In this document: positions 31,940-52,032 of the stretch, one piece after another | Layout: every line of letters starts with the position of its first letter | Numbering within the stretch: position 1 is the stretch's first letter | DNA from: an uncultured Gammaproteobacteria bacterium | Lineage (GTDB): Bacteria; Patescibacteriota; Microgenomatia; JAMCZE01 | NCBI GenBank assembly: GCA_964641255.1 | Contig: CAZXMM010000001.1 | Location: forward strand, 681,795 to 745,794 | DNA length: 64,000 bases | Direction of reading: 5' to 3' | Translations under genes and position numbers: made by a program | Notes under the pieces: generated by a model | Databases searched by the model: none | What the model saw: the letters and a program-made list of their open reading frames with translations, nothing else | Told to the model about the DNA's origin: nothing

Positions 31940-31948
31940 AGGAAAACT

Positions 31949-32275: not shown

Positions 32276-32279
32276 AACT

Positions 32280-32534
32280 ATGGCAAGCAGTATTGACGAA
32301 AAACTTGATCAAGGCCGGGCAGTTTGGGAAATGACCCAAACTGAAGGATGGCAAATCATCAAAGGCCTAATCGACCAGGAGTTAGAAATTGAAAGCAAAG
32401 ACTTACTCGACTGCCCTATAGAAGAAGATCTTGAGCATAAACAAATGATCAAGGCTTACAGAAAAGTTTTGAGCATGGTCGACAGCGTTATTAAAGAGCG
32501 CGACGAAACTGCTCAGGATTTACGAAAGGAATAA
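32280..32534 (+). CDS. Hypothetical phage protein
   Basis: 84 aa, tightly packed. Confidence 0.4.
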   Translation: MASSIDEKLDQGRAVWEMTQTEGWQIIKGLIDQELEIESKDLLDCPIEEDLEHKQMIKAYRKVLSMVDSVIKERDETAQDLRKE

Positions 32535-32538
32535 ACAT

Positions 32539-33411: not shown

Positions 33412-33450
33412 CTCCCTACGTTATTAAAAGAAGGGAGGTGAAAAAAATAT

Positions 33451-34620: not shown

Positions 34621-34672
34621 ACCGGAGTGCATTACTGAAACCTATGACTAACAAAGCAAAACAACGAAAGTC

Positions 34673-34748
34673 ACTACACACTTTCTTACTCAGTGTAGTC
34701 GCCTAGGAAGGGGTGAGCGTTATCACCCCTTCAACCCAATCTGGGGTT
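34673..34748 (+). terminator. Cluster of three stem-loops downstream of the capsid gene
   Basis: ACTACAC/GTGTAGT (7 bp, 13-nt loop), AGGGGTGA/TCACCCCT (8 bp, 6-nt loop), AACCC/GGGTT. No strong U-tract. Confidence 0.3.
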
Positions 34749-34774
34749 GTTAATCAGATAAAAAAGAAAGCGAG

Positions 34775-35395
34775 GTGAAAAACATGACAGACGAAAGAAT
34801 TACAAAATCAGTAGACGAAATGTCAATGGCAGAGCTTTGGAGTGTTGCCAAGCTACTCGGCATTTCAAAAGACGGCAAGCGGGATGAACTGATTGCCCGA
34901 ATCAAAGAAGCACAGGAACAGCAAGGAAACGCTGGTTCAGAACCAACGCAGCCTGAACAGCCCAAAGCAACTAAGAAACAAGTCACGAAAGAGGCAGTCT
35001 ATATCTCCCGTTATTACGAGCTTAAGTTGGTAATGGCTTCCTCCTATCTGAAAGAGGTTGGTGGCAAGGTGTTAATCATCCGAGGTTCATATATTCAATT
35101 CCATGACGGTGTGTACAAAACGGCAAATCCTGAAGAAATCGAGTATCTCGACAACCATCCAAACTTCGGTAGCGTCTTTAGAAAAGTTGAGACTTCCGAC
35201 TTAAAAGGAGGTAAAAGTGTCGACCAAATCTATCAGGATAAATTCAAAACTCTTGAAGAACGCGAAAAAGAAATTGAGGCCCGAGAAGCAACACTTCGCA
35301 AGAAAGAAATTGAGCTGAACGGATCAGCAGAAGGAGCTACCCAGCCAAAAGCAACAACAGGAATTAGAAGTACGGCCGACCAGCCGAAGTTTTAG
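34775..35395 (+). CDS. Hypothetical virion protein with N-terminal SAP/Rho-N-like motif
   Basis: MSMAELWSVAKLLGISKDGKRDELIARIKEA resembles a Rho_N/SAP helix-extension-helix. RBS AGCGAGGTG. Confidence 0.4.
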   Translation: MKNMTDERITKSVDEMSMAELWSVAKLLGISKDGKRDELIARIKEAQEQQGNAGSEPTQPEQPKATKKQVTKEAVYISRYYELKLVMASSYLKEVGGKVLIIRGSYIQFHDGVYKTANPEEIEYLDNHPNFGSVFRKVETSDLKGGKSVDQIYQDKFKTLEEREKEIEAREATLRKKEIELNGSAEGATQPKATTGIRSTADQPKF

Positions 35396-35403
35396 AAAAC
35401 CAT

Positions 35404-35700
35404 ATGTCCAGCAATAGCAGACCGACATTTACCACGGCCCAGGTGACTATAACCAACGCCGACACCTGGTATCCGCTACCGGATATCAAAGTCGGTGAAG
35501 GTTGTGAAGTGGTTATTAAAAGTAAGGTTTCAAATACAGCAGCTATTAAGGTGGCTCACGACGATACTGACAGTAAGAATGCACCGTTGATGCTGGATAA
35601 CCCTGGTGACAGTGTTTCCCTGCGTATAAAAAACACGGCACAGATTGTAGTTAGTTCAGTAACTACCGGACAGGTTGTTGAAGTTATTACTGAGTTGTAA
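35404..35700 (+). CDS. Hypothetical phage protein
   Basis: 98 aa. Confidence 0.35.
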   Translation: MSSNSRPTFTTAQVTITNADTWYPLPDIKVGEGCEVVIKSKVSNTAAIKVAHDDTDSKNAPLMLDNPGDSVSLRIKNTAQIVVSSVTTGQVVEVITEL

Positions 35701-35705
35701 ATATA

Positions 35706-36292
35706 TGGCTAAATTCAAACCATCACAAGCGAATATCAAAAGAATGTTTACGAAGCTGAGAATTATCGTTAACACTGATGATGGCGAGGAAGACTATGAT
35801 ACAACCTGGTATCCGAACGGATTTGCCAGTAACCAGATATCAATCGGCCATGACGGCACGGGAAGCAATGATGCCGGATTAAGATTTTTACGACCACTTC
35901 TCCCTAATAACATCAAGATTACGAAGGCCATCCTGCGGGTAAAGTCTGCCGTCAACTCCACAAAACGTCCCGTCTGGGTAATAAAGGGTATTAAGCAACC
36001 CAGCACTCTGAGTTTTGACTCAACCCATAGACCCTCCCAGCAGCCAAAGACGACAGCTACTGTTGCCTGGGTGCCGGGAGCCGATTGGGTACTTAATACC
36101 TGGTATGAAAGCCCTGACATAAAATCAATCATTCAGGAAATTATCGACCAAACAGAGTTCACCAATAAAGCGATTGGCATAGCGATTGAAGACAATGCCA
36201 GCCCATCCAATAACTATGAAAACATCTGGGACTTTAACAGTGGTGCTGCAAATGCTCCACAACTCATATTAACTATAGAACCGGATTTATAA
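35706..36292 (+). CDS. Hypothetical virion protein carrying one copy of a repeat domain shared with the 36541 gene
   Basis: Start set at ATG 35706 (MAKFKPSQ). The DDGEEDYDTTWYPNGFASNQISIGHDGTGSNDAGLRF domain recurs twice in the next large ORF. Confidence 0.4.
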
Positions 36293-36296
36293 GGAG

Positions 36297-36617
36297 GTGA
36301 AAACTATGCAAGAAAGCGATGTAGCACTACTAGAACAAATCATAAAAGCCATAGTCGCAAAGCCAGAGAAAGTTGTTATCGAAAGAAAAGTAGACGAAAT
36401 GGGAGTCCTGTTATCAGTTCGACTAGATGACAAAGACGCGGGTGCATTAATCGGCAGAGGCGGAGAAACCATAGCAGCAATTCGAAGAATTATGAAGCTC
36501 GTAGGGGTCAAAGCCAATGCCCGAATAAACATCAAGTTAGATGTTCCGCGCAGAAGCAAAAACGACTATGAAAAACCAAGTATTGAAGATCAAAGTAACA
36601 ATCCAAGAGAACTCTGA
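36297..36617 (+). CDS. KH-domain RNA-binding protein (UPF0109/YlqC-like)
   Basis: 106 aa. GXXG loop in DAGALIGRGGETIAAIRRI. RBS AAGGAGGTG. Confidence 0.6.
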   Translation: MKTMQESDVALLEQIIKAIVAKPEKVVIERKVDEMGVLLSVRLDDKDAGALIGRGGETIAAIRRIMKLVGVKANARINIKLDVPRRSKNDYEKPSIEDQSNNPREL

Positions 36618-38232
36618 TGATGGCAGAGAAGCTGGGTCTTCGACTTGGAATAAAGATGGTAATGCGTCAAACGTTATAACTTTGGGAAACTTCACCGGCG
36701 CTCAAACCGGTGCATTGCGATTTCGTGCTATCGATATTCCAAAGTTTTCAAAAGTTCTCCTGGCCAGGCTTCGTCTTCGCCCTGCAATCACCGATGAAAC
36801 TGACTTTACAGTTAACCTGAAGATTAAGGGAATTAAAGAACCAGACCCTGCCCCATTCAAACCAAACGGCTCAAATCGTCCATCCACTAGAACCAAAACA
36901 ATCAACGCAGTCGATTGGGACATTATCAGAAAATGGAACGTCCACGAATGGGTTCAAACACCAAACTTGAATCTAATCGTGGAAGAACTCATTTCTCAAA
37001 GTGGCTGGAAGCCAGGTAATTCATTAGCCTTTGTCATTGAGGATGATGGTAGCCCAGCCGATCAATCAAAAACCTGTTATGACTCCAGCAAAGGTGAAGG
37101 TTACCAGGCAGAACTTGAAATCTATTATCTACCTCAAGGACTACATGAACAAATCACGATCGGATTAATCCAAGGCAACGATCGGGATGGTGAAGAAGAT
37201 TATAAAAGCACTTGGTATCCCGGTGGTTTTCAGAACAACATGACCACCTTTGGAGATGACGGCAGTCTGGATCCAGAGCAGTCACCTAACGATGCCGGTT
37301 TTATTTTCAGTCCGATCGCCATTCCCAAAAGAGCCGAAATCATCTCAGCAAAGATATTAGTAACTAGCCCTTTCCAAAACAACGGCATGCCGAATGTTTT
37401 GATTAAGGGACTAGCTGAAGATGATGCTGCAGTCTTTGCCTCCAATGGATCAAATCGTCCTTCGCTACGCAATAAGACGAACGCAAAGGTTCAGTGGAAC
37501 TTAGGACATGCCGAAGCAGGTGTGCTTATAGGAGATCACTGGACTGCAGAAAGTGCCTACGAATCACCAGAGCTCAAAGATATTATTCAAGAAATTGTTG
37601 ACCGCCCAGGTTGGGCAGAAAGCAAGCTTGGACTTGTGCTGGAGAACTATAACTCCGGACACGGAAACACAAAATACATTTGGGACTATAACCAAGATTC
37701 AGGTAAATACGCTCCCCGACTACTTATAGCCTGGACAAGAGAACGCAGAGTAACTAACAGGGATAAAGACACGGAAGTCTTCAACAAAGCCAACTATCCA
37801 GAGTTTATTATCGTCCACCATTCAGCCACTCCCCGGGATAACACCCGTTTTGAAACCATCAAGAAGGCACATATCGGCTTTGGTTGGGATGATATCGGGT
37901 ACCACAAATGGATAGCCGGAGCACTAGATGGAGATGGGATACTTATCTTAGGCCGACCAGACAACGTCATAGGAGCTCACACTGACAGCAACAAGATGAA
38001 CTATCGCTCCCTAGGAGTTGTTCTCTGCGGCAGCTTTCATAACAGCGAGACTCCGACATCAGCCCAATTAACCACCCTTCAGAAAGTTCTCGATGACCTG
38101 CGTCAGGAAAGAAGCATTCCCAAAGAACGTGTCTTTGGTCATGGGGAAGTTCCTGAATCAGCAACAGACTGTCCGGGTAACGCCATCTTGCCTTATGTCC
38201 AGAGATATAGAGCAACAGGGAGTTTGCAATAA
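36541..38232 (+). CDS. Virion-associated peptidoglycan hydrolase: two N-terminal repeat domains plus C-terminal N-acetylmuramoyl-L-alanine amidase (Amidase_2/PGRP)
   Basis: C-terminal FIIVHHSATPRDN...GWDDIGYHKWI...ATDCPG are PGRP motifs. N-terminal DGREAGSSTWNKDGNASNV and DRDGEEDYKSTWYPGGFQNN repeats. True start may be ATG 36568. Confidence 0.65.
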   Translation: MFRAEAKTTMKNQVLKIKVTIQENSDDGREAGSSTWNKDGNASNVITLGNFTGAQTGALRFRAIDIPKFSKVLLARLRLRPAITDETDFTVNLKIKGIKEPDPAPFKPNGSNRPSTRTKTINAVDWDIIRKWNVHEWVQTPNLNLIVEELISQSGWKPGNSLAFVIEDDGSPADQSKTCYDSSKGEGYQAELEIYYLPQGLHEQITIGLIQGNDRDGEEDYKSTWYPGGFQNNMTTFGDDGSLDPEQSPNDAGFIFSPIAIPKRAEIISAKILVTSPFQNNGMPNVLIKGLAEDDAAVFASNGSNRPSLRNKTNAKVQWNLGHAEAGVLIGDHWTAESAYESPELKDIIQEIVDRPGWAESKLGLVLENYNSGHGNTKYIWDYNQDSGKYAPRLLIAWTRERRVTNRDKDTEVFNKANYPEFIIVHHSATPRDNTRFETIKKAHIGFGWDDIGYHKWIAGALDGDGILILGRPDNVIGAHTDSNKMNYRSLGVVLCGSFHNSETPTSAQLTTLQKVLDDLRQERSIPKERVFGHGEVPESATDCPGNAILPYVQRYRATGSLQ

Positions 38233-38237
38233 AACAT

Positions 38238-38942
38238 ATGCAATTACAGGAATTTAGACAAGATTTAAACGCCAGAATGACAGCCGCAAAAATAAGCGGT
38301 TTCTGGAAGGATGCTGATAAAGATCGTTGGATTAACAAAGCGATAGTACGCGCGTGCAATTTTGCCCGTTTTAAGTTCCTCAGCAAACACGCCAGTCAAC
38401 TCACAGAACTAAATCCCGATGGCTCGGGGAAAGAGTCATACTTTCTTCCCTTTGACTTTAAGCCGGGTGGCATGGTTTTCCTCTCCGTAGATGGCGAGGA
38501 GCATCACAAGGCTTCCGAGAACCAATATTTAAGCCGTAAATCAGATAACAAGATAGCTCCTACTTTTCATCCCTCTCTCGACATAGTTCACCCCTCTCTT
38601 CATACAGACTGGCGATGGCAAAAAATCTATGCCGTAATCGGAGATCAATATTTTATAGATCCTCCGGCTGATGTGGCTGGCAAAGTAATCGACCTCTTTT
38701 ATAAACGCCGCCCGGTTCGACTGGTTGAAGAAACCGATGAACCAATTACTCCGGAAGAACTTGATGAACCTATCTTGAAACTGGCATTAGCCACCTGCCT
38801 TGCAAAAGAGCCAGGGAGAAAAAACGAAGCAGAAAAAGAAGTTATTGAAGCTCACGCCTTATTACAACAAACCAAAGACCGCGAGGACGAGGAACCATCG
38901 GCCGTCTTCGTGGGACAGGCAAAAAGCACCCGATGGTCATAA
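38238..38942 (+). CDS. Hypothetical phage protein
   Basis: 234 aa. Confidence 0.4.
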   Translation: MQLQEFRQDLNARMTAAKISGFWKDADKDRWINKAIVRACNFARFKFLSKHASQLTELNPDGSGKESYFLPFDFKPGGMVFLSVDGEEHHKASENQYLSRKSDNKIAPTFHPSLDIVHPSLHTDWRWQKIYAVIGDQYFIDPPADVAGKVIDLFYKRRPVRLVEETDEPITPEELDEPILKLALATCLAKEPGRKNEAEKEVIEAHALLQQTKDREDEEPSAVFVGQAKSTRWS

Positions 38943-38946
38943 ATAT

Positions 38947-40392
38947 ATGAACGCATACAGAATACAAGGATTTCGAGGAGGAATAGCCGATGACCCATTC
39001 CAAGGGGTCAGAGAGGCTTTCCGTTTCGGCTATGGCTTAAATATCCGAGGCGAAGAAAACACTCTTAAATGCAACCAACGATTAAAAGAAGATCTCGGTA
39101 GCGATACAGTTATCACAGACCTCATTCTCTTCTATGTTCCAGCTTCAAACGGCAATTTATATGGTTTTGGTGACACAGGCAAGATTTATCGAAAAGTTGG
39201 TGGAGCTAGTGCATGGGAGCTGGTCTATACCGACCCAAATGGCAAAATCACCGGAGCGGCTGAGTACACCAACAATGATGGCAGTGACAACTATATCCCT
39301 TACCTCTATTGGGCGACTGAAACAAAAGTCAGCAGAATTAAACTTTCCGGTACATGGCCGACTGACGTAGAACATGATTGGCAGACTCTGGATGGTGACC
39401 CGGCATGGCACACAATGGCTGAAGCTTTGGGAGTGTTGCTTATCTGCGACAGCAAAGATTTAGCGATGGTCGACTTCGAAGGAGGATTTAATCGGGATGC
39501 CATTGATCTGCCTCGAAGCCATAGAAACAAATGCTTACTAGGACTGGATCAGTTAGTTGTATTCGGCTCTACCAAAGGTGACAAAGTCGAGGAAGGCTGG
39601 CTCTGGACTTGGGACAAGATCCAACCCTCTTGGATCCAAAGAAGAATGGTCGCCGAAAGAGGCATAAACGCCCTTCTGCAAGGCGAATTCTTAATGATCC
39701 AAGCAGGAGTGCGCGGTGGTCTCTACTTCTGGGATACCTCCAACTTACTGAGGATAAAAAAGCTTCCTGGTGAGTTTGGGTGGGTAAACCCTGGCGGTGT
39801 CACTATTATGGGAGGTTTACCTTTGTTAGGAGTAAATGGAAGCGATAAATGCGGCATTTACTCTTACGGCCGACTGAACAAAAACGAACCCTATGCTCTA
39901 AACCTTGAGCACATTCCTTCTCACGGCAAAATGGAAAATGTCCTCATCGGGGCTTTAACCATGTATGAGGACAAAATCTACTGCTCCTGGAAAGACGGAA
40001 CTACTTTTGGAACGGATGTCATCGATCCAGATAACAAAGCAGAAGCCCGCTATGAAGGCTTGGTGTTTGATGGTGGTGAATCATTTACCCAGAAGGGATT
40101 CAGACATATCAAGCTGGTCACAAAACCTCTCCCCAAAGACTGCACGATAGAAGTTTTCTACAAAGTGAATCAACAAGCGGAGTGGCAACTGGCCACTATG
40201 CAGGATGGCTCAGAGCTATTTGACCAAGAAGGAAGATCAAAGGCAATTTTTACCATCGAAACCGGTGGAGACGAAGATGACCCAGGTACTGGAGAGGAAT
40301 ACGAATTGGCAATGAATCTACACCCCAATGGGAATGACACTCCGGAAGTTATCTCAGCAACAACTTATTTCGAGCCTTTAGGAGTCTTATAA
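38947..40392 (+). CDS. Hypothetical tail-associated protein
   Basis: Start trimmed to ATG 38947 (MNAYRIQGF) to remove overlap. 481 aa. Confidence 0.4.
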   Translation: MNAYRIQGFRGGIADDPFQGVREAFRFGYGLNIRGEENTLKCNQRLKEDLGSDTVITDLILFYVPASNGNLYGFGDTGKIYRKVGGASAWELVYTDPNGKITGAAEYTNNDGSDNYIPYLYWATETKVSRIKLSGTWPTDVEHDWQTLDGDPAWHTMAEALGVLLICDSKDLAMVDFEGGFNRDAIDLPRSHRNKCLLGLDQLVVFGSTKGDKVEEGWLWTWDKIQPSWIQRRMVAERGINALLQGEFLMIQAGVRGGLYFWDTSNLLRIKKLPGEFGWVNPGGVTIMGGLPLLGVNGSDKCGIYSYGRLNKNEPYALNLEHIPSHGKMENVLIGALTMYEDKIYCSWKDGTTFGTDVIDPDNKAEARYEGLVFDGGESFTQKGFRHIKLVTKPLPKDCTIEVFYKVNQQAEWQLATMQDGSELFDQEGRSKAIFTIETGGDEDDPGTGEEYELAMNLHPNGNDTPEVISATTYFEPLGVL

Positions 40393-40396
40393 ACCT

Positions 40397-41731
40397 ATGT
40401 TGACCAAAGATATTAAAAAAATATTAACAAACAGAGAGGTTGAAGACCAACCGTTTCCTGAGGTGATCCCTCATTCTCACAATGGCATGGACTCACCATT
40501 GTTAGCCCCGAACTCTGTCGATACTGTCAATATCAAACCTGGTGCAGTTGGCGATAACGAACTGGATGACTTCTCCGTAACTGAACAGAAACTGGCTGAT
40601 GCTGCAGTAGCCACTGGCAAAATCAAAGAAGATGCTGTCACCGCCGCAAAGGTGTACAAAGCAGGATCTGTTATCACCCTCTCAGCTCAGATCGCAGAAG
40701 CAATTATTCTGACGGCTCATATCGGACTTGCCCAAATTACTAACTCCCGAATAGGAAACGCCGCTATCTCCACAGCAAAAATCCAGACAGCCGCAATCAC
40801 AAATGCAGAAATAGCAGATGCAGCGATTACGAATGCAAAAATAGGAGCTTTAGAAGTCGGTAACTCACGAATAGCCAATGCTGCTATCAGCACTGCCAAA
40901 ATTCAAGATGCAGCCGTGACAAATGCCGAAATTGCTGACGCGTCTATCACTAATGCCAAAATTGGTGCGCTAGAAGTTGGCAACTCTCGCATTGCAAACG
41001 CAGCCATAAGCACAGCCAAGATTCAGGATCTGGCAGTTACAGATGCCGAAATCAACGACTTAAACGCTGGGAAGATCACTGCTGGCTCAATGAGCGCTGA
41101 ACGTATTTACGGAGGGACCGGATACTTCACCAGAATTAACATCTTGATGTCGGGATTAGAAGCGTTGAATGTGGCTGGAAATATAAATAAATCCGGAACA
41201 TCAAACTTCTCAATTCCTCATCCATTGAAAAAGGGCCATAGATTGGTTTATACTGGTATTGAGGCAGCAGAAGTTCTCCTCGTTCATCGAGGAACAGCCA
41301 CTCTACGTAACGGACAGACACGAATTGACTTCCCAGACCACTTCATAGCGGTCAGCGATCCCAGAAACATTACCGCATATCTGACTCCCAAGCAAAACTG
41401 CAACGGACTTTTCATTGTCGAAGTAACAAACGACCATCTTGTCGTGCAAGAACTGCAAGGAGGAATATCCTCCGCTCAGTTTGATTACATGGTCGTAACA
41501 GTCCGTGATAAATTCTTCGACTTTGACTTTGAACCAGAAGGTGAAATCGCCATCAAACGTAATGACGAAGACGAGGAAACTTTCAAGCAACGCTATCTGG
41601 AACACAGAATAAACGAGATCACCAAAAAAGGTGGTCCCAAAGTCCAGGAGCAAATTGACCAACTGCGGAGTGAATTTATCACCTCAGTTGGCAGAAAGGA
41701 GGTCACAGGCAATGTCAAAAAAACAAACTAA
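40397..41731 (+). CDS. Tail fibre/spike protein with tandem 40-aa repeats
   Basis: NAEIADAAITNAKIGALEVGNSRIANAAISTAKIQDAAVT repeated, beta-helix-like 10-aa periodicity. Confidence 0.5.
   Translation: MLTKDIKKILTNREVEDQPFPEVIPHSHNGMDSPLLAPNSVDTVNIKPGAVGDNELDDFSVTEQKLADAAVATGKIKEDAVTAAKVYKAGSVITLSAQIAEAIILTAHIGLAQITNSRIGNAAISTAKIQTAAITNAEIADAAITNAKIGALEVGNSRIANAAISTAKIQDAAVTNAEIADASITNAKIGALEVGNSRIANAAISTAKIQDLAVTDAEINDLNAGKITAGSMSAERIYGGTGYFTRINILMSGLEALNVAGNINKSGTSNFSIPHPLKKGHRLVYTGIEAAEVLLVHRGTATLRNGQTRIDFPDHFIAVSDPRNITAYLTPKQNCNGLFIVEVTNDHLVVQELQGGISSAQFDYMVVTVRDKFFDFDFEPEGEIAIKRNDEDEETFKQRYLEHRINEITKKGGPKVQEQIDQLRSEFITSVGRKEVTGNVKKTN
40706..41100 (+). repeat. Intragenic tandem repeats (~120 bp unit, about 3 copies) in the tail fibre gene
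   Basis: Amino-acid repeats nearly identical, nucleotide copies diverged at synonymous sites. Confidence 0.6.
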
Positions 41732-41945
41732 ATTAGATAAGTCAGATTTAAAAGAGCTGCAATTAAGAAAGCAGATGATTAAGCAACATCAGCTGACAAT
41801 CCAAGCGCTTGATTCTCAGTTAGTCATGTGGCTTCTCGGCAAGTTTTTCAAATACGGCTTGGATAGTCAGAAAGAATACAACTTTGATGCTGTAACCGGT
41901 GAAATAACTGAAGTTACACAGTCCCAGAAAGGAGGTGGCTCCTAA
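41712..41945 (+). CDS. Hypothetical small phage protein
   Basis: Start at ATG 41712 after AGGAGGTCA. 77 aa. Confidence 0.3.
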   Translation: MSKKQTKLDKSDLKELQLRKQMIKQHQLTIQALDSQLVMWLLGKFFKYGLDSQKEYNFDAVTGEITEVTQSQKGGGS

Positions 41946-43012
41946 TGGCGACAAAACAATACGGCGGTTGGTATTGGCAACCTGATCAAAATAAAGCTCT
42001 CAGATGGTGGGGTACTGATTCTTCCGGCAAAGACATTTACACAACCGGCGATGAACCAGGCAAGCAACAATCCGTCAGCAATTTAAGTAGCGGTCTTTCT
42101 CAGGTTGGTGGTTCTAGTATCTTGGGTTTTGATGTAGGAACGCTCAATACTCGATTTCAAGACACTTATAAACAAGCTCAAGATTTATCATCAGATCTCG
42201 AAACCTATCAAACAAGGCGCTACGACGAAGAATATGGCAAAGCGGAACTTGGCAAACTTAAAGATACCATTAGCTCTTTGGATACAAGTATCGCAAGTGA
42301 AAAAAATGTTCGTGATGAGTCAGTCAGCAAGATCCGCAAAAATCCGGGCTATTCCGCAGCCACAATAACCGGTGAATCCGGAGAGGTTCAACGACTTGCC
42401 AATGCAAAAATTGGAAATCTCATTGAAGAACGCAATGCAAAAGCTGAAGATTACAACGCCCGCCTCGGAGAAATAACACGCAAAGTAACATCTGAAACTC
42501 AAGGCAAAGAAGCCAAACTTAACAATCTGCGCTATGACCTTCAATTTTTAGGTGGACTCCTCAATACATACAACCAGATTCGATCTTCCGAACTTTCCTC
42601 CGCCAAAGAGGATGAACGCTGGGAGCGGGAATTTGAACTCAAACTCTATGACGCTCAAACAAGCAGGTTAAGAGCTGGTGAAGGCGGTAGCGGAACTTAC
42701 GCTAAACAACAAGTCAAAGATGCATTTGGAAATGTGGTTGGTTTCTTCGACCCAACTTCGGGCAAGACTAATCTTTATGAGCAACCCTCGAGTCAATCAC
42801 AAACGACCACTGTAAATGAAGGCGACCTAAGAACAGAAATTAGATCTGCTTGGAAGCAGGGTTATAACGCTGACCAGCTCAAAACAAATCTCTCAGGAGT
42901 AAGTACAGATAAAGGAAAGAGTGCCACACAAATTATAGATGAAGAATGGCAACTCAAAAATCAACCAGGTGTGATGGGATTCTTAAGACGCTTATTTACA
43001 CCTGGAGTTTAA
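41945..43012 (+). CDS. Hypothetical internal virion protein
   Basis: 355 aa, coiled-coil-rich. Position matches the T7 gp14/gp15-like internal proteins. Confidence 0.35.
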   Translation: MATKQYGGWYWQPDQNKALRWWGTDSSGKDIYTTGDEPGKQQSVSNLSSGLSQVGGSSILGFDVGTLNTRFQDTYKQAQDLSSDLETYQTRRYDEEYGKAELGKLKDTISSLDTSIASEKNVRDESVSKIRKNPGYSAATITGESGEVQRLANAKIGNLIEERNAKAEDYNARLGEITRKVTSETQGKEAKLNNLRYDLQFLGGLLNTYNQIRSSELSSAKEDERWEREFELKLYDAQTSRLRAGEGGSGTYAKQQVKDAFGNVVGFFDPTSGKTNLYEQPSSQSQTTTVNEGDLRTEIRSAWKQGYNADQLKTNLSGVSTDKGKSATQIIDEEWQLKNQPGVMGFLRRLFTPGV

Positions 43013-43017
43013 TGCAT

Positions 43018-46000
43018 ATGGACAATTTTTTATCACAAATTAAGAAAAACATAACCTCGTCAATTCAAAATACGAGTCAAACTCTTGGTGGTATTTTTGG
43101 GAAATCGCAACAAGCAGCTTCCTCTCTAGTACGTTCTGGCTCTGAAAAAATTCAGGATATTCTAAAACCGCTCGAAAAACTAAAGCCTGAACAATACGAC
43201 ATCGCCATTCCAGGTCCCACAACCGGCTCCTACAAACCATTCAAAAATCTGTATGTAGAAGCGGCAGCACAAACACTTGGATTGGGTGCTAGAGATACAG
43301 ATGTACTTGAGCGATTGCCAAGTGCAACAATCGGAGCATTAAAAGGTGCCGGAGATGGTCTTGCCCAAGCCTTAACTTTTGGCTGGTGGAATCCGGAAAT
43401 AAAGTACGCCAATGACATCGAAAAAATGGCCGGTGACATGACGGAGGTGGAGTTTAATGTTTTAGGAACAATAGGAACTTTTGTGGTAGGAGGAGGTCTA
43501 GTTCAAGGAGCACTCAAAGGTGTTCCACTTCTTGGAAGAGTTGCTACAGTTGCTCCAAGAACATTTAGTCTACTTTCGAATGGACTTACTTTTGCAGGGT
43601 TAACCCAACTGCAAAAAGAAGAATCCTACAAAGATGCGCAGCAACGCGCCAAAGATTTTGTAAGCGATTTTGCCTTAGGTGGAGCTTTCTCCATAGCCGG
43701 AATGAAACCTTCATTTCTTAAATCCTCTGCGATTATCGGGCCAGCGACTTACGTTACTTCACTTATTAAAGGTGACTCCAATGAAGATGCTCTCAAAAAC
43801 ACCGCAGCAATGATTGGACTTCACTCACTTAACTTTGCCGTAGCAAAATACTTACCCAACAAATCTGCGGTAGAAAGTCAGATAGAAAAAGCGGCCAGTG
43901 AACAACTCAAAATAACCAAAAAACAAGCTCTCGAGTATCTTGGAGTAAATGAGACAGCAACTGCAGAGCAGGTCAAGCAAGCATGGAAAAATAAAGTAGT
44001 CGGTATTACTAAACAGTTTCCAGCTCAAGCCAACCAAACACCACAAGAAATGGGTCAATTTAATCAAGCTTGGAATACAGCCAATAGAGCCTATGAGTTT
44101 TTAGCAAAGGTAAGCAATCCCACTGGATATACTGGCAAGTCTTTCAGACAAGAATTTCAAGACCTTTACTACGACCTCTGGAAAAATGTTCCTGACAAAA
44201 GAGCATTGGTCATCAAAGCAGTTCGCAATATGCCTGCAGGGCTCTCAATCAGAGCCACACTCAACGAGGCCCAGAGAAGCGAAATTGTCACAGCTCTTGG
44301 AGGGCAAGAAACAAAAACCAGACTCGGCCGTGTTGCAGAATTAACTGATGCCGATTTGGTAACAGTAGCGATGGAAAACAAAATACCGGTTACTCCTTCA
44401 AAACAATCAACTCAACCAACTATTCAGAAAGAATCGATAATTCCTTCTGAACTAAAATTAAGTAGTCAAGAGCAAAAAGCTTTCAAAGCTACAGAGATTC
44501 GAGATAAATATCGAAGTGATGGTGAAATTGAACTAGAAAAGATTGAGCGAACGAACAAAGATGTATCACAGACAACTCTCATTCAAAAACGGCGCCAAGG
44601 TCAAATAGTTGCACCGGAGCAACCGCGAGCGGATGAGGCGAAAGATCCACCGCCTGGTAGTCCTCCTAGACCTCCCCAGGAAACACCTATTGGTTCTGAT
44701 TCACCACCGCCGGAAGGGAGTGCTTTAAGCCAGATCGATGCGATGGTTGGAAAGCTTTCTCCTGCCGCAAACCTCTTGGACAAGGCTAAAAAAGCAATTC
44801 AGGTTTTCCCACGTCTTTTTACTGACCGCTTCGCTCCTATTCGGGAGTTTGAAAACAAAGTAAGTAAACTGCAAGGCAAGCCTATCGATATCAACTCCAG
44901 TCCTTATGTGGGCGCCCGAATGTACGCGGGACGTTTTGGTATTGTTGAGGGTAGTTTCCGGGATCTGTATACCGCACTTCAACCTGTCAGAAAATTGCGG
45001 GCAGACTTTACCCGCTATGTACTTGCTCAAAGAACGGCTGAAAGAGCCGCCAGAGGTGTTGAAAATCCACTTGAGGTAACTCAAGAAACTGCAGAGAAAG
45101 CACTCCAGGAACTAAAAACTAAAGTGGGCGACAAAGCATTTAAAACATTTGAGCAGGTTGGTAACGGCATGCAAAATTGGGCAGTTAAAGCAATTCTCGA
45201 ACCCATGAGAGATGCTGGGATTTTAAGCAATAAAGCCTTCAACGCTGTTGTTGAGAAAAATAAGAACTGGCTTCCATTCCATGTTTTGGAATACATACCT
45301 ACGCTGGAAGAAGCAGACAAGATGGCGGTCGGCTCCGAAACATTTTCAGTGAGTAAACAAGGCGTTGTGAGTGCTCTTGAAGGAACAGACAAGGTCATTC
45401 GGGATCCATTTATCTCCGTAATAGACAACCTCACAAAAGCGGTCAGTCTTGTTGAACGAAATAAAGTAGCCTTGAAACTGGTAGAGCTTCGCAAGACTCA
45501 CCCTGATGCAACTAAAGGGTTGATTAGATTCTTACCCACCAAAGAAAATGCTCCGCAAGATTGGGAATCAATTAGCGTATTTATCGACGGCAAGGTAACG
45601 CGCTGGGCTGTGCCAAAAGAATTATCTGAAGCCATGCACGCCATGAGCCCTGCAGAGTCAGGTTTGATGGGTAAGTTAGTAATGATGTCTTCAAAAGCAT
45701 TTAAGGCAGGTACAACTACGCTCTATTTTCCATTCACCCTTTCCAATGCAGTACGGGACTATCAAACCGCAACAATGGTTTCCAAATATGGCTTTAATCC
45801 TGCAGTATGGCTATCAGGATTTAAAGACGGCTTCCGCTCGGCGTTTAAATGGGAATCCAAAGCCTATGACGAATTTATGAGAAATCAAGGTGGCTATGGG
45901 AGCTACATTGAATCAACCAAAGGTTTGTCAGTTGCCTCTGATCAATTATTCCGACCCAGATGGATGGAAAGAACGAAAGCTGTTCTTAATCCCTTTGAGT

Positions 46001-47259
46001 TAATAGGTAACTTCTCTGAAGCCATAGAACTTGCTCCGAGACTTGGAATCTATAAAAAAGCGCTCAGTAAAGGAGCCAGTCCTTTGGAAGCAGCATTTGA
46101 AGCACGAAACGTGACGGTCGACTTTGCTAAAGCAGGAGTTGAAGCCCGACTGATTAATATGTGGGTTCCGTTTGTAAATGCACGATGGCAAGGTTTACTA
46201 AATGTCACCCGTGTCATGAAAGACAATCCCGTCCGGACTGCTGCCAGAGCTCTTGCAATGACTGTTCTTCCCGGAATTGCTACTTACTTTTACAACGTTA
46301 TGAATCATGAAGACCTTTGGGACGATATTCCTCAGTGGGCAAAGGATACCTACTTCATCATTATTGTAGGTGAGGAAAAAGATGAAGATGGTAATAAACT
46401 TCCAAAAGTAATCCAGATCCCTAAAGGTGACGTAGGAACAATTTTCTTCAACCCTCTGATGTATTCGTTTGAGTATGTCCGTAAACAAGAACCTCAAAAC
46501 CTCTTCAAGCTCGGTCTGGAGTGGATGAGTCAGTTAGCTCCGGTTCCGTTTACAAGAGATGGTGAATTATCAGCTCAGGCCTTCTTCTCAGGAGCTTTGC
46601 CGCCAATTATTCGCACCCCTTTGGAAATAGCGACAAATACAAACTTCTTTACTGGATTTCCGGTTGTCCCAAGAAAACTGGAGAAGGTTGCCCCGTCAGA
46701 GCAATACGATAGGAGAACACCTGATTTGGCAATCACAATCGGCCGCGCTTTAGGAGTAAGTCCTATGAAACTAACCCATGCTGTCTATGGATTAACCGGA
46801 AGCTTGGCCAGAGAGCTTCTTAGTCCTGCTGATGTGCTAGGACTGACAATGGATCGTTTTTACCGAACTCAGGGCGGTGAGAAGCAACGTAGGGCCTGGG
46901 ACATCAAATATGAAGCAGAGGTAGGCTACAACACCACCCGACTGCAAATGAAGAAGCTGGTCGAAGCAGGTGACCTTCAGGGGGCACAGCAAATGGCACT
47001 AAGATGGAATGAGGAAGCAGAAAAACTAATTCCCCAAGTTGTTCCGCTTCTGATGAAAGATGATCCCAAAGAAGCATCGCTCTTCCAAAGCAGCATAACT
47101 TTTAACGCCAGCGATTTGCAACGCTTATTAAAAACAACTCTTCCTGGTGGTATTCCTCAGGAAACTGACAATGATGAACAGAAATCAACACTAATTCCAT
47201 TGAAGAATGGGTCCAATTCCACAGACAATCAAAGTATTAAGAGTTTGATTTATAGATAA
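43018..47259 (+). CDS. Large internal virion/core protein, 1413 aa, gp16-like by position
   Basis: Largest ORF of the module, before the lysis genes. Contains a J-domain-like segment without an HPD motif. Start trimmed to ATG 43018. Confidence 0.45.
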   Translation: MDNFLSQIKKNITSSIQNTSQTLGGIFGKSQQAASSLVRSGSEKIQDILKPLEKLKPEQYDIAIPGPTTGSYKPFKNLYVEAAAQTLGLGARDTDVLERLPSATIGALKGAGDGLAQALTFGWWNPEIKYANDIEKMAGDMTEVEFNVLGTIGTFVVGGGLVQGALKGVPLLGRVATVAPRTFSLLSNGLTFAGLTQLQKEESYKDAQQRAKDFVSDFALGGAFSIAGMKPSFLKSSAIIGPATYVTSLIKGDSNEDALKNTAAMIGLHSLNFAVAKYLPNKSAVESQIEKAASEQLKITKKQALEYLGVNETATAEQVKQAWKNKVVGITKQFPAQANQTPQEMGQFNQAWNTANRAYEFLAKVSNPTGYTGKSFRQEFQDLYYDLWKNVPDKRALVIKAVRNMPAGLSIRATLNEAQRSEIVTALGGQETKTRLGRVAELTDADLVTVAMENKIPVTPSKQSTQPTIQKESIIPSELKLSSQEQKAFKATEIRDKYRSDGEIELEKIERTNKDVSQTTLIQKRRQGQIVAPEQPRADEAKDPPPGSPPRPPQETPIGSDSPPPEGSALSQIDAMVGKLSPAANLLDKAKKAIQVFPRLFTDRFAPIREFENKVSKLQGKPIDINSSPYVGARMYAGRFGIVEGSFRDLYTALQPVRKLRADFTRYVLAQRTAERAARGVENPLEVTQETAEKALQELKTKVGDKAFKTFEQVGNGMQNWAVKAILEPMRDAGILSNKAFNAVVEKNKNWLPFHVLEYIPTLEEADKMAVGSETFSVSKQGVVSALEGTDKVIRDPFISVIDNLTKAVSLVERNKVALKLVELRKTHPDATKGLIRFLPTKENAPQDWESISVFIDGKVTRWAVPKELSEAMHAMSPAESGLMGKLVMMSSKAFKAGTTTLYFPFTLSNAVRDYQTATMVSKYGFNPAVWLSGFKDGFRSAFKWESKAYDEFMRNQGGYGSYIESTKGLSVASDQLFRPRWMERTKAVLNPFELIGNFSEAIELAPRLGIYKKALSKGASPLEAAFEARNVTVDFAKAGVEARLINMWVPFVNARWQGLLNVTRVMKDNPVRTAARALAMTVLPGIATYFYNVMNHEDLWDDIPQWAKDTYFIIIVGEEKDEDGNKLPKVIQIPKGDVGTIFFNPLMYSFEYVRKQEPQNLFKLGLEWMSQLAPVPFTRDGELSAQAFFSGALPPIIRTPLEIATNTNFFTGFPVVPRKLEKVAPSEQYDRRTPDLAITIGRALGVSPMKLTHAVYGLTGSLARELLSPADVLGLTMDRFYRTQGGEKQRRAWDIKYEAEVGYNTTRLQMKKLVEAGDLQGAQQMALRWNEEAEKLIPQVVPLLMKDDPKEASLFQSSITFNASDLQRLLKTTLPGGIPQETDNDEQKSTLIPLKNGSNSTDNQSIKSLIYR

Positions 47260-47265
47260 ACAGCT

Positions 47266-48333
47266 ATGGCAGATATAACAAGACCAATCGAACCATTTGA
47301 ACTCAATCAAGGCTTTGGAGAAAATCCTGCAGACTATGCCCGATTTGGACTCAAAGGGCATAACGGCTGGGACTTAAAAACAAAATTCCCCGATACACCC
47401 CAAGGCTTCCGCAACATTCTCTCTTCTTGGGCTTCTAAATTTTATGCACAGGGCAACGAAGGCAATGACGGCTTCGGGCTTTACTTTGAAGTTATCGTAC
47501 AGCTCTATAACAGCTACAAACTGACCTATGCCCACTGTAAATCCATTGAGAGTTTTGAAAATAAAAACGAAGGTGACACGATGGCTATCAGCGATAACAC
47601 CGGCAATAGTACCGGCAGCCACCTGCACCTTACGGTAAAACGTGGCCAACTCCAAAACGGAAAGTTTGTAAGTGACAACTATAACAATGGATATTTTGGA
47701 GCAATTAATCCTCAGGAGTTCTTTGATGAACTCAGAAAATATAAGAAAGAAAAAGGGACAGCTTCCGCTCCAGAAGGTTGCTTGGTACCAAACACACCCG
47801 AATGGCGAACCAAGTATGAGCAGGTAGTCTTTTCCGCAACTAAATGGGCCGATACTCTCAAGATTTTAGAGATCGCAGACGACCCTAACACTACCCCCAG
47901 CGACAGAATTAAAAGTGTAGTCGGAGGGTATAAAAGCAGAGAAACTGACCTATCTAACAAGCTAAATGAGAAGTCTATTGAAGTCAGTAAAGCCACCCAG
48001 GAGATAACCAATAGAGTCGAACAAGTTGGCAGACTTGAGAAGGATTTGCTAGAGAAGGATAAATACTATAAAGCCCTGATTGACGCACTGAATAAACAGC
48101 TCAAACACGGCTCAGATGCACTCCCCTTAGCTCAGGCTCGCATAGGGGTACTGGAAGACCAGCTGGACGAGGCAAACAAAGCCAAAGGCAGAGCACTTAA
48201 TGATGCTCAGGAAGCCAAGAGTCAGCTTGATGCGTGCCAAAAAGGTACGCTTGTTCCGACTCCTCAACTCATTTTCTCTCTCGTTGTTCAGTACTTCGGC
48301 AATAAATTACATAAAGGAGGTGACAAGGTATGA
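47266..48333 (+). CDS. M23-family peptidase-domain lysin with C-terminal coiled coil
   Basis: HNGWD (HxGxD) and GSHLHL (HxH) motifs. Confidence 0.65.
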   Translation: MADITRPIEPFELNQGFGENPADYARFGLKGHNGWDLKTKFPDTPQGFRNILSSWASKFYAQGNEGNDGFGLYFEVIVQLYNSYKLTYAHCKSIESFENKNEGDTMAISDNTGNSTGSHLHLTVKRGQLQNGKFVSDNYNNGYFGAINPQEFFDELRKYKKEKGTASAPEGCLVPNTPEWRTKYEQVVFSATKWADTLKILEIADDPNTTPSDRIKSVVGGYKSRETDLSNKLNEKSIEVSKATQEITNRVEQVGRLEKDLLEKDKYYKALIDALNKQLKHGSDALPLAQARIGVLEDQLDEANKAKGRALNDAQEAKSQLDACQKGTLVPTPQLIFSLVVQYFGNKLHKGGDKV

Positions 48334-48593
48334 ACGACTTTTACCCTGAATGGAAAAAAGTAATCTGGCGTTTTGTCAGAATTTTCATTTCCTCATTTCT
48401 ATTTACCGGATCGCTCGTGCTGGTAAACGCCCAACCGGAATCCTTATCCAGTTGGAATAGCTTCCTAAACACTCTGGTAGTGCCATTTGCAGTCTCTGGT
48501 GGAATTGCAGGACTCAATGCGGTAGGGAAGCTTCTACGAGACGTTTTCGGCTCAGAAGATAAAGACAGCCTTATTGATAAATTGATCTTTTAA
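48330..48593 (+). CDS. Holin-like two-TM protein
   Basis: 87 aa, two hydrophobic helices, overlaps the lysin stop (ATGA). Confidence 0.4.
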   Translation: MNDFYPEWKKVIWRFVRIFISSFLFTGSLVLVNAQPESLSSWNSFLNTLVVPFAVSGGIAGLNAVGKLLRDVFGSEDKDSLIDKLIF

Positions 48594-48597
48594 ACCT

Positions 48598-48849
48598 ATG
48601 ACGGAAAACGAGCCAGTAGATACTGTCAAAATGCTTGAGCGCGTAGCCAAACTCGAAGAACGGGTCGATGGCGGGTTTGGCTATGTAAACAAGGAATTGA
48701 AAGAGATAAAAGAAAATCATCTCCACCAACTTCAGGCTGACGTGAGCGATCTGAAAGTAAAAGTGAGTACCTTGGCGGTGAAGATTAGTATTGCGGCTGC
48801 AATAGCGACAATAGCAGGAGACTTTGTTTTTCGCCTTATATTTAAGTAG
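48598..48849 (+). CDS. Small coiled-coil protein with C-terminal TM (spanin/holin-accessory-like)
   Basis: 83 aa, C-terminal ISIAAAIATIAGDFVF. Confidence 0.3.
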   Translation: MTENEPVDTVKMLERVAKLEERVDGGFGYVNKELKEIKENHLHQLQADVSDLKVKVSTLAVKISIAAAIATIAGDFVFRLIFK

Positions 48850-48870
48850 GGTTACTTCTTACCCTTTTTA
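48848..48870. terminator. Bidirectional intrinsic terminator candidate between convergent genes
   Basis: AGGGT-TACTTCTT-ACCCT followed by TTTTT. Overlaps the last codons of the minus-strand AbrB-like gene. Confidence 0.3.
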
Positions 48871-49127
48871 TCAGAATCTTCTTCAGATTTGTTATTGAAC
48901 ACAAGATTATTTAAGTCATCTGTAAAACCTTTAAAGGAGTTGGCATTCAAGACATGGAAATATCCGGATTCCGGATTACCGGTAAAAATCAGTGTGTCGC
49001 CGGGTTGAATGTTCTGAGCTTTACGCAATTTGGCAGGTATAACGATTTGACCGCGCGAGCTTACAGGAGCGGTCCCGAACACTGTCATTTTTGATTGTGG
49101 CTTCTTGCCTTTATTTTTCATAGTCAT
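48852..49127 (-). CDS. AbrB/SpoVT (swapped-hairpin) family DNA-binding protein
   Basis: SSRGQIVIPAKLRKAQNIQPGDTL matches the SpoVT_AbrB domain pattern. Confidence 0.55.
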   Translation of the reverse strand: MTMKNKGKKPQSKMTVFGTAPVSSRGQIVIPAKLRKAQNIQPGDTLIFTGNPESGYFHVLNANSFKGFTDDLNNLVFNNKSEEDSDKKGKK

Positions 49128-49377
49128 CTAAAACGGCAACTACTCTTCCGAGAAATTTATTCCTACAATAAAGAAAAATCTTTAATGTAGGTTACAGGTA
49201 TTATACAATATATCTTACTCGAGATCTTCGCAACATCAGAAAATGACAGAAACAACCTTGTATCCACAGGGGTAAAAGAAGTAAAATGTACTGGTGTTAG
49301 CAAGATAGTGTCATAAAAGATTTGACACCTATGTGTTCTTTAAGAGAATCAAGCTGGAGTTCCAAACTAGGCTCAAC

Positions 49378-49406
49378 AAGAGGTCTTAGGTTCGAGCAAA
49401 GTACGG
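49378..49406 (+). repeat. 29-nt direct repeat, copy A: AGGTTCGAGC-n4-TACG-n4-CCAGCTC
   Basis: 20/29 identical in blocks to copy B at 50061..50089. The two copies flank the HIT-like gene. Confidence 0.35.
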
Positions 49407-49454
49407 TGACCAGCTCCATATGACAATTAAGTACAGAAATGTACACAAAGTTAC

Positions 49455-49952
49455 TTGACAAATAAAAATATTATGGCTGAGCAAGAAATATCTTTTTACA
49501 AAAATGTCTATTCAGAAGGTTGTCCTGGTTGTAATCGCACAGAGCCACAACCCGAAGGATTGGATATTGTCTTGGAAACAGGTAATTTTAGAGTTCATCA
49601 AGATTATGCATTACCCATTCCAGGAATGATGGTTGTTGAAGTAAAAAGACACGTTAGAAGTATGACGGAGTTTACGGCTGGCGAATCAAATGAATTGGTG
49701 AGTGTTTTGATGAGGACTCGAGAGGCCATGAGAAATGCGGGTATTGAAGAGGCTACTTTAGTACAAGAAGAGCGAAGTTCTCATTTTCATGCTTGGTGGT
49801 TGCCAATATATCCTTGGATGAAAGATGCCACAGATGGAAAGATTAGGAATATTCAATTTATCTTCAATCATGCCAAAGAAAATATGGTTACGGAAAGTAG
49901 TATTAAAGAAGTCGAAGACATCACAGGGCGAATTAAACTTTCATTGACGTAA
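49455..49952 (+). CDS. HIT-like superfamily protein
   Basis: CPGC near the N-terminus, VKRHV, and SSHFHAWW resembling the HxHxHxx histidine triad region. Confidence 0.45.
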   Translation: MTNKNIMAEQEISFYKNVYSEGCPGCNRTEPQPEGLDIVLETGNFRVHQDYALPIPGMMVVEVKRHVRSMTEFTAGESNELVSVLMRTREAMRNAGIEEATLVQEERSSHFHAWWLPIYPWMKDATDGKIRNIQFIFNHAKENMVTESSIKEVEDITGRIKLSLT

Positions 49953-50060
49953 GTCTTTGAAACTTCGAATACCAAGTCGGCATTTTAACAAATTTAGTTT
50001 TAAAATAAGATCTGGAGTTATCAGACGGTATAAGTTTAGAAAAAGCCATAATGGTAATGG

Positions 50061-50089
50061 TAGGTCCGAGCTGGTTACGCTCCCCAGCT
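50061..50089 (+). repeat. 29-nt direct repeat, copy B: AGGTCCGAGC-n4-TACG-n4-CCAGCTC, with internal hairpin GAGCTGG/CCAGCTC
   Basis: See copy A. Confidence 0.35.
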
Positions 50090-50121
50090 CAAAATAGACT
50101 CGGCCCGAAGGTAAATTACTA

Positions 50122-51751: not shown

Positions 51752-51756
51752 CCTCA

Positions 51757-52001: not shown

Positions 52002-52032
52002 GCGTAGATACTTGTTATAATGTGCTATCCAT

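Follow-up and report, generated by a model that had tools for sequence, protein, structure and literature searches.

Integron cassette arrays, together with the clusters of attC sites lacking integron-integrases (CALINs), are built from co-oriented repeats that alternate with single, unrelated accessory genes, most of which are co-oriented as well. Each gene has its repeat at the 3' end and tends to travel with it, and one edge of the repeat is where homology breaks. The integrase, IntI, is required for a complete integron and not for a CALIN. Described here is an arrangement whose behaviour, as we analyse it, is closest to that of an integron cassette array without an integrase, and which might be pictured either as a set of repeat-bounded cassettes or as a tandem att site. 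It lies in a window of 64,000 nucleotides (positions 681,795 to 745,794 of contig CAZXMM010000001.1) from an uncultured bacterium of the Microgenomatia, where two copies of a short element, each ending in a 28-bp core, stand on either side of a gene for a HIT-like protein at the right end of a prophage-like block. Bacteria of the candidate phyla radiation (CPR) have tiny genomes, and their gene gain and loss are little understood. In a full-text search of the literature no description was found of integron-like arrays or att sites in CPR bacteria.

The architecture of a CALIN, namely at least two co-oriented sites that alternate with single open reading frames (ORFs) and lie at the ORF 3' ends, is present in this family of loci. 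The element itself differs from attC. Neither GTTRRRY nor RYYYAAC is seen on direct reading of its ends, no R''-L''...L'-R' fold was returned by RNAalifold for 55 short-form copies on both strands, and there are no R''/L''-L'/R' boxes, no conserved imperfect hairpin and no IntI nearby. In their place is a 28-bp non-palindromic core combined with a coding-like ORF on the opposite strand. In addition, a whole prophage uses the same seam, and the host is a CPR Microgenomates bacterium.

Islands and prophages that insert in tandem at one att site, as in tRNA islands or the integrative mobile elements exploiting Xer (IMEX) at dif, are alike in that each segment brings a copy of the site, direct repeats mark the seams, and phages and small elements lie side by side. 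The site considered here, in contrast, is neither a tRNA gene nor dif-like (there is no 11-6-11 dyad), its single-gene units of ∼0.5-1 kb are without an integrase, and it is found at several loci per genome. The pdif modules of Acinetobacter are likewise small gene modules bounded by 28-bp sites with the recombinase encoded elsewhere; whereas pdif sites are dyad-symmetric XerC/XerD sites in alternating orientation, the present sites are asymmetric, always direct and attached to an ORF body. The Rickettsia palindromic elements (RPEs) and ORF-keeping repeats of the miniature inverted-repeat transposable element (MITE) type are also short, dispersed repeats of a reduced genome with one open frame that has no start or stop of its own, but RPEs are palindromic and lie inside host genes, whereas the elements here are intergenic, non-palindromic, co-oriented and positioned at phage and cassette seams. 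Type I toxin-antitoxin systems (hok/sok, ldr, ibs/sib) share the multi-copy ORFs of 40-80 amino acids, often in tandem and at prophage ends, and a possible opposite-strand promoter over the ORF 5' end. The peptides here differ in not being of the hydrophobic membrane type, and many copies have no start codon. There is a reasonable chance that the system is an independent one.

The pattern AGGTYCGAGC-n4-TACG-n4-CCAGCTC, recognized in a first-pass annotation of the window as a 29-nt direct repeat, has exactly two matches there, both on the plus strand, at 49388-49416 (copy A) and 50062-50090 (copy B). The start of copy A had been put at 49378, which is 10 nt too low, and its distance from the gene, given as 49 nt, is in fact 38 nt to the alternative TTG start at 49455 or 59 nt to the ATG at 49476. 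Copy B begins 109 nt past the stop codon of the HIT-like gene, as had been described. That reading overlooked a conserved small ORF running on the opposite strand, whose 5' end the motif forms. Core A, a segment of 28 nt (49389..49416, GAGCTGGTCACCGTACTTTGCTCGAACC on the minus strand), is copy A without its leading A at 49388. It opens small ORF A (49297..49419, minus strand), which encodes the 40-residue peptide MELVTVLCSNLRPLVEPSLELQLDSLKEHIGVKSFMTLSC, starts with an ATG at 49419-49417, stops at 49299-49297, and lies inside the longer ORF 49297..49461. Near-identical copies of it occur in nine of the related loci and contigs with which the window was compared and which are denoted by L-numbers (L016, L036, L047, L058, L061, L128, L202, L239 and L242). 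Core B (50063..50090), which corresponds to copy B, has the minus-strand sequence GAGCTGGGGAGCGTAACCAGCTCGGACC; 8 positions distinguish it from core A.

When the window is searched with a protein hidden Markov model (HMM) of the small ORFs, exactly two full-length copies are detected, each of them on the minus strand. Element A, at 49303-49416, matches model positions 1-38 with an E-value of 1.5e-18. Element B, at 49947..50090, is a diverged copy with a 10-residue insertion (ELGSVTSSDLPLPLWLFLNLYRLITPDLILKLNLLKCRLGIRSFKDLRQ) and matches the same positions with an E-value of 2.5e-13. Its subtype is common to copies in L006, L083, L125 and L221, and its 3' end overlaps the stop codon of the HIT-like gene, tail to tail. 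Note that the codon preceding the first GAG is ATG in copy A and TTT in copy B, such that copy B has no start codon.

A search was conducted with the relaxed pattern GGTYCGAGYNNNNTRCGNNNNCYAGCTC in species-representative genomes and metagenome contigs. It matched 108 genome stretches and more than 120 metagenome stretches (at least 120 metagenome contigs among the matches listed). All but 12 of 245 matches lie in low-GC contexts (233); the 12 are high-GC chance matches. The low-GC matches derive mostly from metagenome-assembled genomes (MAGs) labelled Microgenomates or Patescibacteria (Woese-, Shapiro-, Davies-, Levy-, Ames-, Gottesman- and Roizmanbacteria, and WWE3), and near-identical copies are also found in some low-GC MAGs labelled Gammaproteobacteria or Pseudomonadales. 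Two related phage contigs of IMG/VR are matched as well; scans of viral contigs with short half-cores gave chance matches only. Several dispersed copies can occur in one genome, as on contigs of JBDTME01, LCET01 and JAQUSJ01.

The two 29-base repeats are therefore homologous copies of a widespread element, and the idea that two short stretches resemble each other by chance is refuted. In its favour could be cited that pairs with at least 21 of 29 matches within 1 kb arise 2-8 times per window in Markov-1 simulations; the real window, in this unbiased count, contains 25. None of 100 shuffles contained the pattern itself; since that pattern had been built from these two copies, the result is post hoc. 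On these counts the window alone gives no proof of significance. That proof comes from external homology: both copies match the family HMM (E-values of 1e-13 to 1e-18), and the homologues number in the hundreds. Other near-repeats brought up by the pair count have a period of ∼159-162 nt at 61698-62060, in or near ORF 61671-62213, and a period of 30 nt at 40737-40916, inside the phage gene 40397-41731.

On the strand of the small ORF the core reads GAG CTG GTN ACC GTA NTT NGC TCG RAC C, the first nine codons (E-L-V-T-V-L/I-x-S-N/D) of the frame, which on the minus strand of the window continues into the body. The small ORFs fall into two length classes, ∼37-40 and ∼75-80 residues, with the long form corresponding to the short form plus ∼37 residues after S-N/D-L. 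The sense frame is the only one of the six that is open through the element; the plus-strand frames contain stops in most copies. Variation of the body at codon positions 1, 2 and 3 is 46, 32 and 61% in the short form and 36, 27 and 49% in the long form, and pN/pS is lowest in the sense frame, 0.55 versus 0.66-1.25. By these measures the ORF body is seen to evolve like coding sequence. Gene callers predict 235 proteins of the family, mostly of ∼60-120 residues, unnamed and without Pfam domains, and no match to the family was found in Pfam, NCBIfam or PHROGs. An AlphaFold model of the long form is helical with a mean predicted local distance difference test (pLDDT) score of 73, and the nine core-encoded residues are disordered in it (pLDDT <50). 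Foldseek comparison of this model with the PDB gave only matches with E-values above 4 and no meaningful fold neighbour. A 46-residue plus-strand ORF over copy B was considered as ribosomal protein L36 and rejected, given that it has no Pfam or NCBIfam match and that its frame contains stops in relatives.

The core, as opposed to the body, is constrained as DNA and not as protein. Codon usage was examined in 52 secondary copies from multi-copy loci, which had not been ascertained by the pattern, in DNA of ∼42% GC. Glu 1 is encoded by GAG in 50 of the 52 (once each by GAA and AAG in the others), and Leu 2 is CTG in 40, with no other leucine codon used and the remainder being the arginine codons CGG or CGA. 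Val 5 is GTA in 46 (ATA in five, GTG in one), Ser 8 is TCG in 48 (TCT and TTG in two each), and Asn 9 is AAC in 40 and never AAT. The commonest variant is thus the non-synonymous change of CTG to CGG, and the synonymous sites are frozen. Directly past the core the families are strongly different. Only 64 of 214 distinct copies have ATG, TTG or GTG before the GAG, and another 28 have CTG; elsewhere the codon is TTT, ATT, TGT or the like, in several cases a stop, and many copies have no in-frame start at all. Overall, a start codon is missing from about half of the copies.

Linkage of each position to the body was estimated as the ratio of within-family to total entropy, with body families defined at 85% identity or higher. 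The ratio is 0.89-0.96 in the flank, which is unlinked, 0.64-0.85 at core positions 5-12, which are weakly linked, and 0.34-0.56 at core positions 16-25, which are linked more strongly. Linkage rises from the outer to the inner half, which fits an exchange within the core's outer half or close to it.

The outer edge of the core is a rearrangement seam, both for the prophage-like block and for single-gene units. In an all-against-all blastn comparison of the loci, 356 alignments of at least 300 bp, from 184 locus pairs, have their starting point between -6 and +1 nt relative to the first core base and extend inward. From the outside, only nine locus pairs end at the core edge. In the window, element A occupies the right end of a prophage-like block of structural and lysis genes (31541..49287, plus strand) that encodes an SU10-type capsid and adaptor, an amidase, an LPD38 giant protein, an M23 lysin and small membrane proteins. 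The last gene of the block, at 48852..49127 on the minus strand, codes for an AbrB/MazE-fold protein (Pfam PF04014, E-value 1.2e-7). Metagenome contigs L202 and L239 are 90% identical to the prophage side over 4.4-4.7 kb counted from core A, a stretch that covers the AbrB/MazE-like gene, the small membrane proteins and the M23 lysin. Beyond the core the sequences are unrelated. The prophage-like block therefore ends exactly at core A, with the homology shared with L202 and L239 breaking between 49416 and 49417.

The same junction pattern extends over 1.4-3 kb in L016, L058, L061 and L128. Including the window copy, 17 listed copies belonging to four small-ORF subfamilies are located at such a phage end. 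In all 17 an AbrB-like gene, the only recurrent partner of the element, follows 137-242 nt downstream of the small ORF, and the outer flanks, where available, differ from locus to locus. At this junction, which is otherwise 80-90% identical, the codon before the GAG may be ATG, TCT, TTG, CTT or TTT. Two IMG/VR contigs of 54-59 kb (L242 and L244) belong to the same phage type, have the portal and lysis end in common with it, and carry the element 100-210 nt from the contig end; L244 runs on into a tRNA fragment.

On the other side of core A, the leader, the HIT-like gene and element B form a separate unit between two core edges. In motif orientation the order is core A, a leader of 59 nt (49417..49475) up to the HIT ATG, the HIT-like gene, body B with core B, 31 nt, and the next gene. 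The proposed cassette, 49417..50090 on the plus strand, measures 674 bp and contains the leader, the HIT-like gene, the body of element B and core B. Contig L007 displays the same order of core, leader, HIT gene and element in a unit that is 86% identical, with a HIT protein 89% identical, and it starts at its core. The blastn alignment between the two ends at 50070, inside core B, past which there is no similarity; on direct reading, the sequences beyond each core are unrelated. Beyond its second core L007 continues with another leader module and another gene.

The leader contains GTAAC, TGTACA and TGTCAC motifs. It represents a recurrent module of ∼45-60 nt with GTAAC...TGTACA...TGTCAC repeats (window 49417-49475), which in many loci fills the gap between the core and the divergent gene and which, by its sequence, looks like an operator or a compact divergent promoter region. 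A promoter and terminator scan of 48800-50300 yielded nothing better than was obtained with shuffled sequences.

The gene between the copies (49476..49952, plus strand) encodes 158 residues when read from the ATG. That its product is HIT-like, as had been proposed, is upheld: a profile of 18 homologues matches PDB entries 2oik (E-value 4e-7), 6d6j (1e-5) and 1y23 (4e-5), and the protein belongs to the HIT fold with a variant of the H-phi-H-phi-H-phi-phi motif. A CxxC motif is invariant, as are His 103 and His 105, and the third histidine is replaced by tryptophan to give an H-F-H-A-W triad. Because Pfam itself gives no match, the protein is regarded as a remote and variant HIT member. Its homologues occur in unrelated contexts across other Microgenomates. 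In L006 (HIT protein 85% identical) a B-type element directly precedes the gene, with the core 9 nt from the HIT ATG and the leader absent. In L001-L003 the HIT gene comes after a tRNA-Gly(TCC), directly so in L001, and there is no element. From the differing arrangements in L007, L006 and L001-L003 it follows that the modules have been reshuffled between lineages.

Arrays of this kind are not confined to the window. Among 213 loci, 44 contain two to five copies, always in one orientation and typically 480-1100 bp apart. The 43 gaps examined contain 51 intervening genes, usually one per gap, and 43 of these genes are on the motif strand, opposite to the small ORF. The gene starts 20-80 nt past the previous core and runs up to, or into, the 3' end of the small ORF with its stop. 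The array unit in motif orientation is thus short leader, gene, body and core, and the window fits this scheme. The genes in the gaps are mutually unrelated and encode HIT, NUDIX, APH-like and PEMT proteins, secreted proteins and unknowns. When homologous cargo genes from different loci are compared, the body of the element at the 3' end has a median identity of 0.74 (n = 46), with 54% of the values above the 95th percentile of background, whereas the median for the 5'-facing element is 0.56 (n = 15, its high values mostly from syntenic duplicates) against a background median of 0.51. This greater sharing of the 3' element weakly favours the gene plus its 3' element as the travelling unit. Contigs L007, L048, L067, L081 and L211 start within ∼40 nt of a core, L007 exactly at it, which suggests that the repeat breaks short-read assemblies of these genomes.

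The reading that we favour, with a probability of about 0.45, is that the core is a crossover site at which phages and cassettes insert in tandem, in the manner of an integron but without attC or a nearby integrase. On this view a modular element of ∼110-145 bp is present in two diverged copies, and the two repeats are the invariant 28-bp cores at their ends. The core would serve a site-specific recombinase that acts in trans and whose gene lies elsewhere, possibly in the host or at the opposite end of the phage. A circular DNA with its own core and body, either a phage or a one-gene cassette, would insert at a resident core, and repeated insertion would generate head-to-tail arrays of leader, gene, body and core, as with integron cassettes, CALINs or tandem islands at one att site. 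In the small ORF the seam separates the start codon from codon 2, so that at each insertion chance would decide whether the displaced copy keeps a start codon. Among the three interpretations offered by the first-pass annotation, that of a mini-cassette boundary or att-like site is the one favoured, because the outer core edge is where homology between genomes ends, copies arrayed in one orientation alternate with single genes, and the core-to-core HIT unit recurs in L007; the repeats are not classical attL/attR remnants of the prophage, given that both lie at one of its ends. We put forward more tentatively, as somewhat less probable, the wider proposal that Microgenomates and their phages share a hitherto unrecognised cassette and integration system, an integron-like platform for gene shuffling that arose independently in ultra-small bacteria. 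Its site would be an asymmetric core of 28 bp joined to a small ORF at the 5' end, phages and one-gene cassettes would insert there in tandem through a putative recombinase, and some copies would also bear a structured module of ∼95 nt.

Several observations weigh against a crossover site. Pfam scans of nearly all large ORFs of the window revealed no recombinase, and a crude regular-expression search for tyrosine and serine recombinase motifs in 1206 ORFs of the related loci was equally negative. The dyad symmetry of the core is weak, with 4 bp of GAGC/GCTC and 4 of 11 positions matching when the left arm is compared with the reverse complement of the right, unlike typical tyrosine-recombinase sites; it is not a Xer/dif-type site with two 11-bp arms and a 6-bp centre, and all copies are in direct orientation. 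The window has no further core on the other side of the prophage, both of its cores being at the right end, and in 18 related phage loci none was found up to 10 kb from the portal. As the phage type exceeds 50 kb, the left end probably lies outside the window. Neither an empty site nor a circular junction was observed, no record came up when the window's 248-residue protein was looked up as an exact match with the aim of locating a sister strain that has an empty site, and a terminal repeat test on the IMG/VR contig of L242 found none. In L006 the HIT gene has no downstream element. At the same end of the phage, L244 has a small ORF of another family and becomes homologous to the window only from 49287 on, past the stop of ORF A, so that the inner end of the element is a seam as well. 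Finally, 237 of the 356 shared blocks consist of the element alone, 300-350 bp in the long form, with unrelated DNA on both sides. Because no recombinase, attC-like fold, second core within the window, empty site or circular junction was found, the dyad symmetry is weak and element-alone blocks predominate, two further explanations, a MITE-like repeat and an ordinary small gene, stay alive.

The first of these holds that the element is a self-mobile, non-autonomous repeat, MITE-like or derived from an insertion sequence, that inserts near gene ends and tRNA genes and moves neither the HIT gene nor the phage, the arrays reflecting repeated insertion into a permissive region. Although unlikely on balance, it accounts well for the element-alone blocks, for the several dispersed copies per genome in JBDTME01, LCET01 and JAQUSJ01, for the lack of a nearby recombinase in the crude motif search, and for the differences from the window in L006, as to element B after the HIT gene, and in L244, as to the element family at the phage end. 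Such a repeat might be expected to show itself at its termini, but RNAalifold of 55 copies gave no conserved inverted termini and no conserved hairpin, and no target-site duplications were noticed in the flanks looked at, although the inner boundary of the element is not fixed to a single base. The strict co-orientation with one gene per gap, the protein-coding constraint on the body and the tendency of genes to share their 3' element across loci are likewise poorly explained by it. The body constraint is what would be anticipated if the repeats were the conserved 5' ends of two paralogous, ordinary small genes, coding for a regulator of the divergent neighbour or for a type I toxin-like peptide with a cis-antisense RNA, and if the 28 nt were kept for expression or antisense control. 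We consider this improbable to a similar degree. The single open frame, the ordering of variation (position 2 below 1 below 3), the low pN/pS, the 235 predicted proteins and the helical model all agree with it, as do the operator-like TGTACA/GTAAC module upstream of some copies, copy A of the window included, and the extended -10-like motif on the opposite strand before the core in half of the copies. Against a gene of this type stand the scarcity of start codons, the changing start codon among phage junctions of 80-90% identity, the seams between the start codon and codon 2, the frozen synonymous sites, the predicted disorder of the core-encoded residues and the absence of any Pfam, NCBIfam, PHROG or PDB-fold relative; furthermore, non-syntenic homologous genes do not share the divergent, 5'-side element.

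Far less probable than either is that the repeats are tRNA-derived att remnants or paired small structured RNAs on the plus strand. The resemblance of GGTTCGA to a T-loop, which had been remarked upon, is superficial, in that the bases after TTCGAGC cannot close a T stem. In keeping with the earlier statement that no full tRNA folds there, ARAGORN reports only tRNA-Arg at 51678 and tRNA-His at 52034 in the window, with neither a tRNA nor a tmRNA at either copy, and Rfam has no match at either one even at E-values up to 10. The 7-bp hairpin GAGCTGG/CCAGCTC described for copy B does form; only 4 of its 7 pairs (GAGC/GCTC) are present in copy A and the family. The suggestion of paired regulatory RNAs is not supported, as there is no Rfam match and RNAalifold of 55 diverse copies gave no conserved structure or covariation on either strand beyond that invariant 4-bp GAGC/GCTC; the stops in the plus-strand frames of most copies are a further point on this side. 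A structured RNA or attC-like hairpin on the other strand was likewise set aside: copy A folds well there (minus strand, z = -3.1), and the pairing is not conserved in the family. What a tRNA origin does have in its favour, in addition to the T-loop likeness and the copy B hairpin, is that in 14 loci a tRNA gene (tRNA-Arg(TCT), tRNA-His(GTG) or tRNA-Thr(CGT)) starts 3-24 nt past the core, always on the motif strand, and that the HIT homologue of L001 directly follows tRNA-Gly.

If the crossover reading is correct, it would provide a concrete mechanism of gene flux in a large uncultured part of the tree, joining prophages and single accessory genes (HIT, NUDIX, APH-like, methyltransferase), and searches could be made for a novel class of recombination site. 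Hundreds of "hypothetical" proteins of ∼40-100 residues and some of the contig breaks in Microgenomates MAGs would also be explained, and the site could serve to mark the ends of prophages and the variable regions of these genomes. Should the small ORF instead prove to be a functional gene, it would represent a large, uncharacterised family associated with the ends of phage lysogeny.

An extended -10-like motif (TGnTAnnnT) on the motif strand ends 6 or 15 nt before the core in 109 of 220 elements, neither window copy among them. Judging by its position, it would launch transcripts at the core or directly ahead of it, heading outward into the neighbouring gene or tRNA. Because conserved Tyr-Ile codons overlap with it, the motif is not independent evidence. 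In L034, L035, L067, L215 and L223 an intrinsic terminator is present right past the core on the motif strand. A conserved module of ∼90-95 nt, with the sequence ...GTACCGAATGATCTCTGCGG...CCGCAGAGACC..., comes after long-form elements and after some of the B type, as in L034 (∼6225-6330, minus strand), L106 (7306-7400, minus strand) and L221 (4390-4481, plus strand). Its closing stem covaries (UA/CG/UG), and its inner stems do so by eye (GATGG/CCATC, GACAG/CTGTC, GGCTA/TAGTC). There are 71 nhmmer matches to it in the loci and none in the window, and it has no Rfam family; from these features it is possibly a new structured RNA or single-stranded DNA motif tied to the element. As for the tRNA genes of the window, in the stretch 51678-52106 a GIY-YIG ORF at 51729-52001 overlaps the 3' end of tRNA-Arg(TCT) (51678-51753), and tRNA-His(GTG) follows at 52034.

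A portal gene of the same SU10 phage type lies at 9432-11321, 20 kb from the SU10-type capsid, adaptor and lysis block (31541-48849). The region between is occupied by host-like genes for a PPIase, three Band-7 proteins, a cation efflux protein, a class-V aminotransferase, a P-type ATPase, an ABC transporter, DsbD, thioredoxins and BlaR/BlaI. Portal and lysis end occur together on IMG/VR contigs of 54-62 kb, and the window may therefore contain either a phage with a large accessory region or an interrupted prophage. Adjoining the portal gene, at 1386-9017 on the minus strand, are three large genes with DrmE C-terminal, DEAD/Helicase_C, NERD and ResIII-like domains, which together look like a DISARM-like defence cluster.

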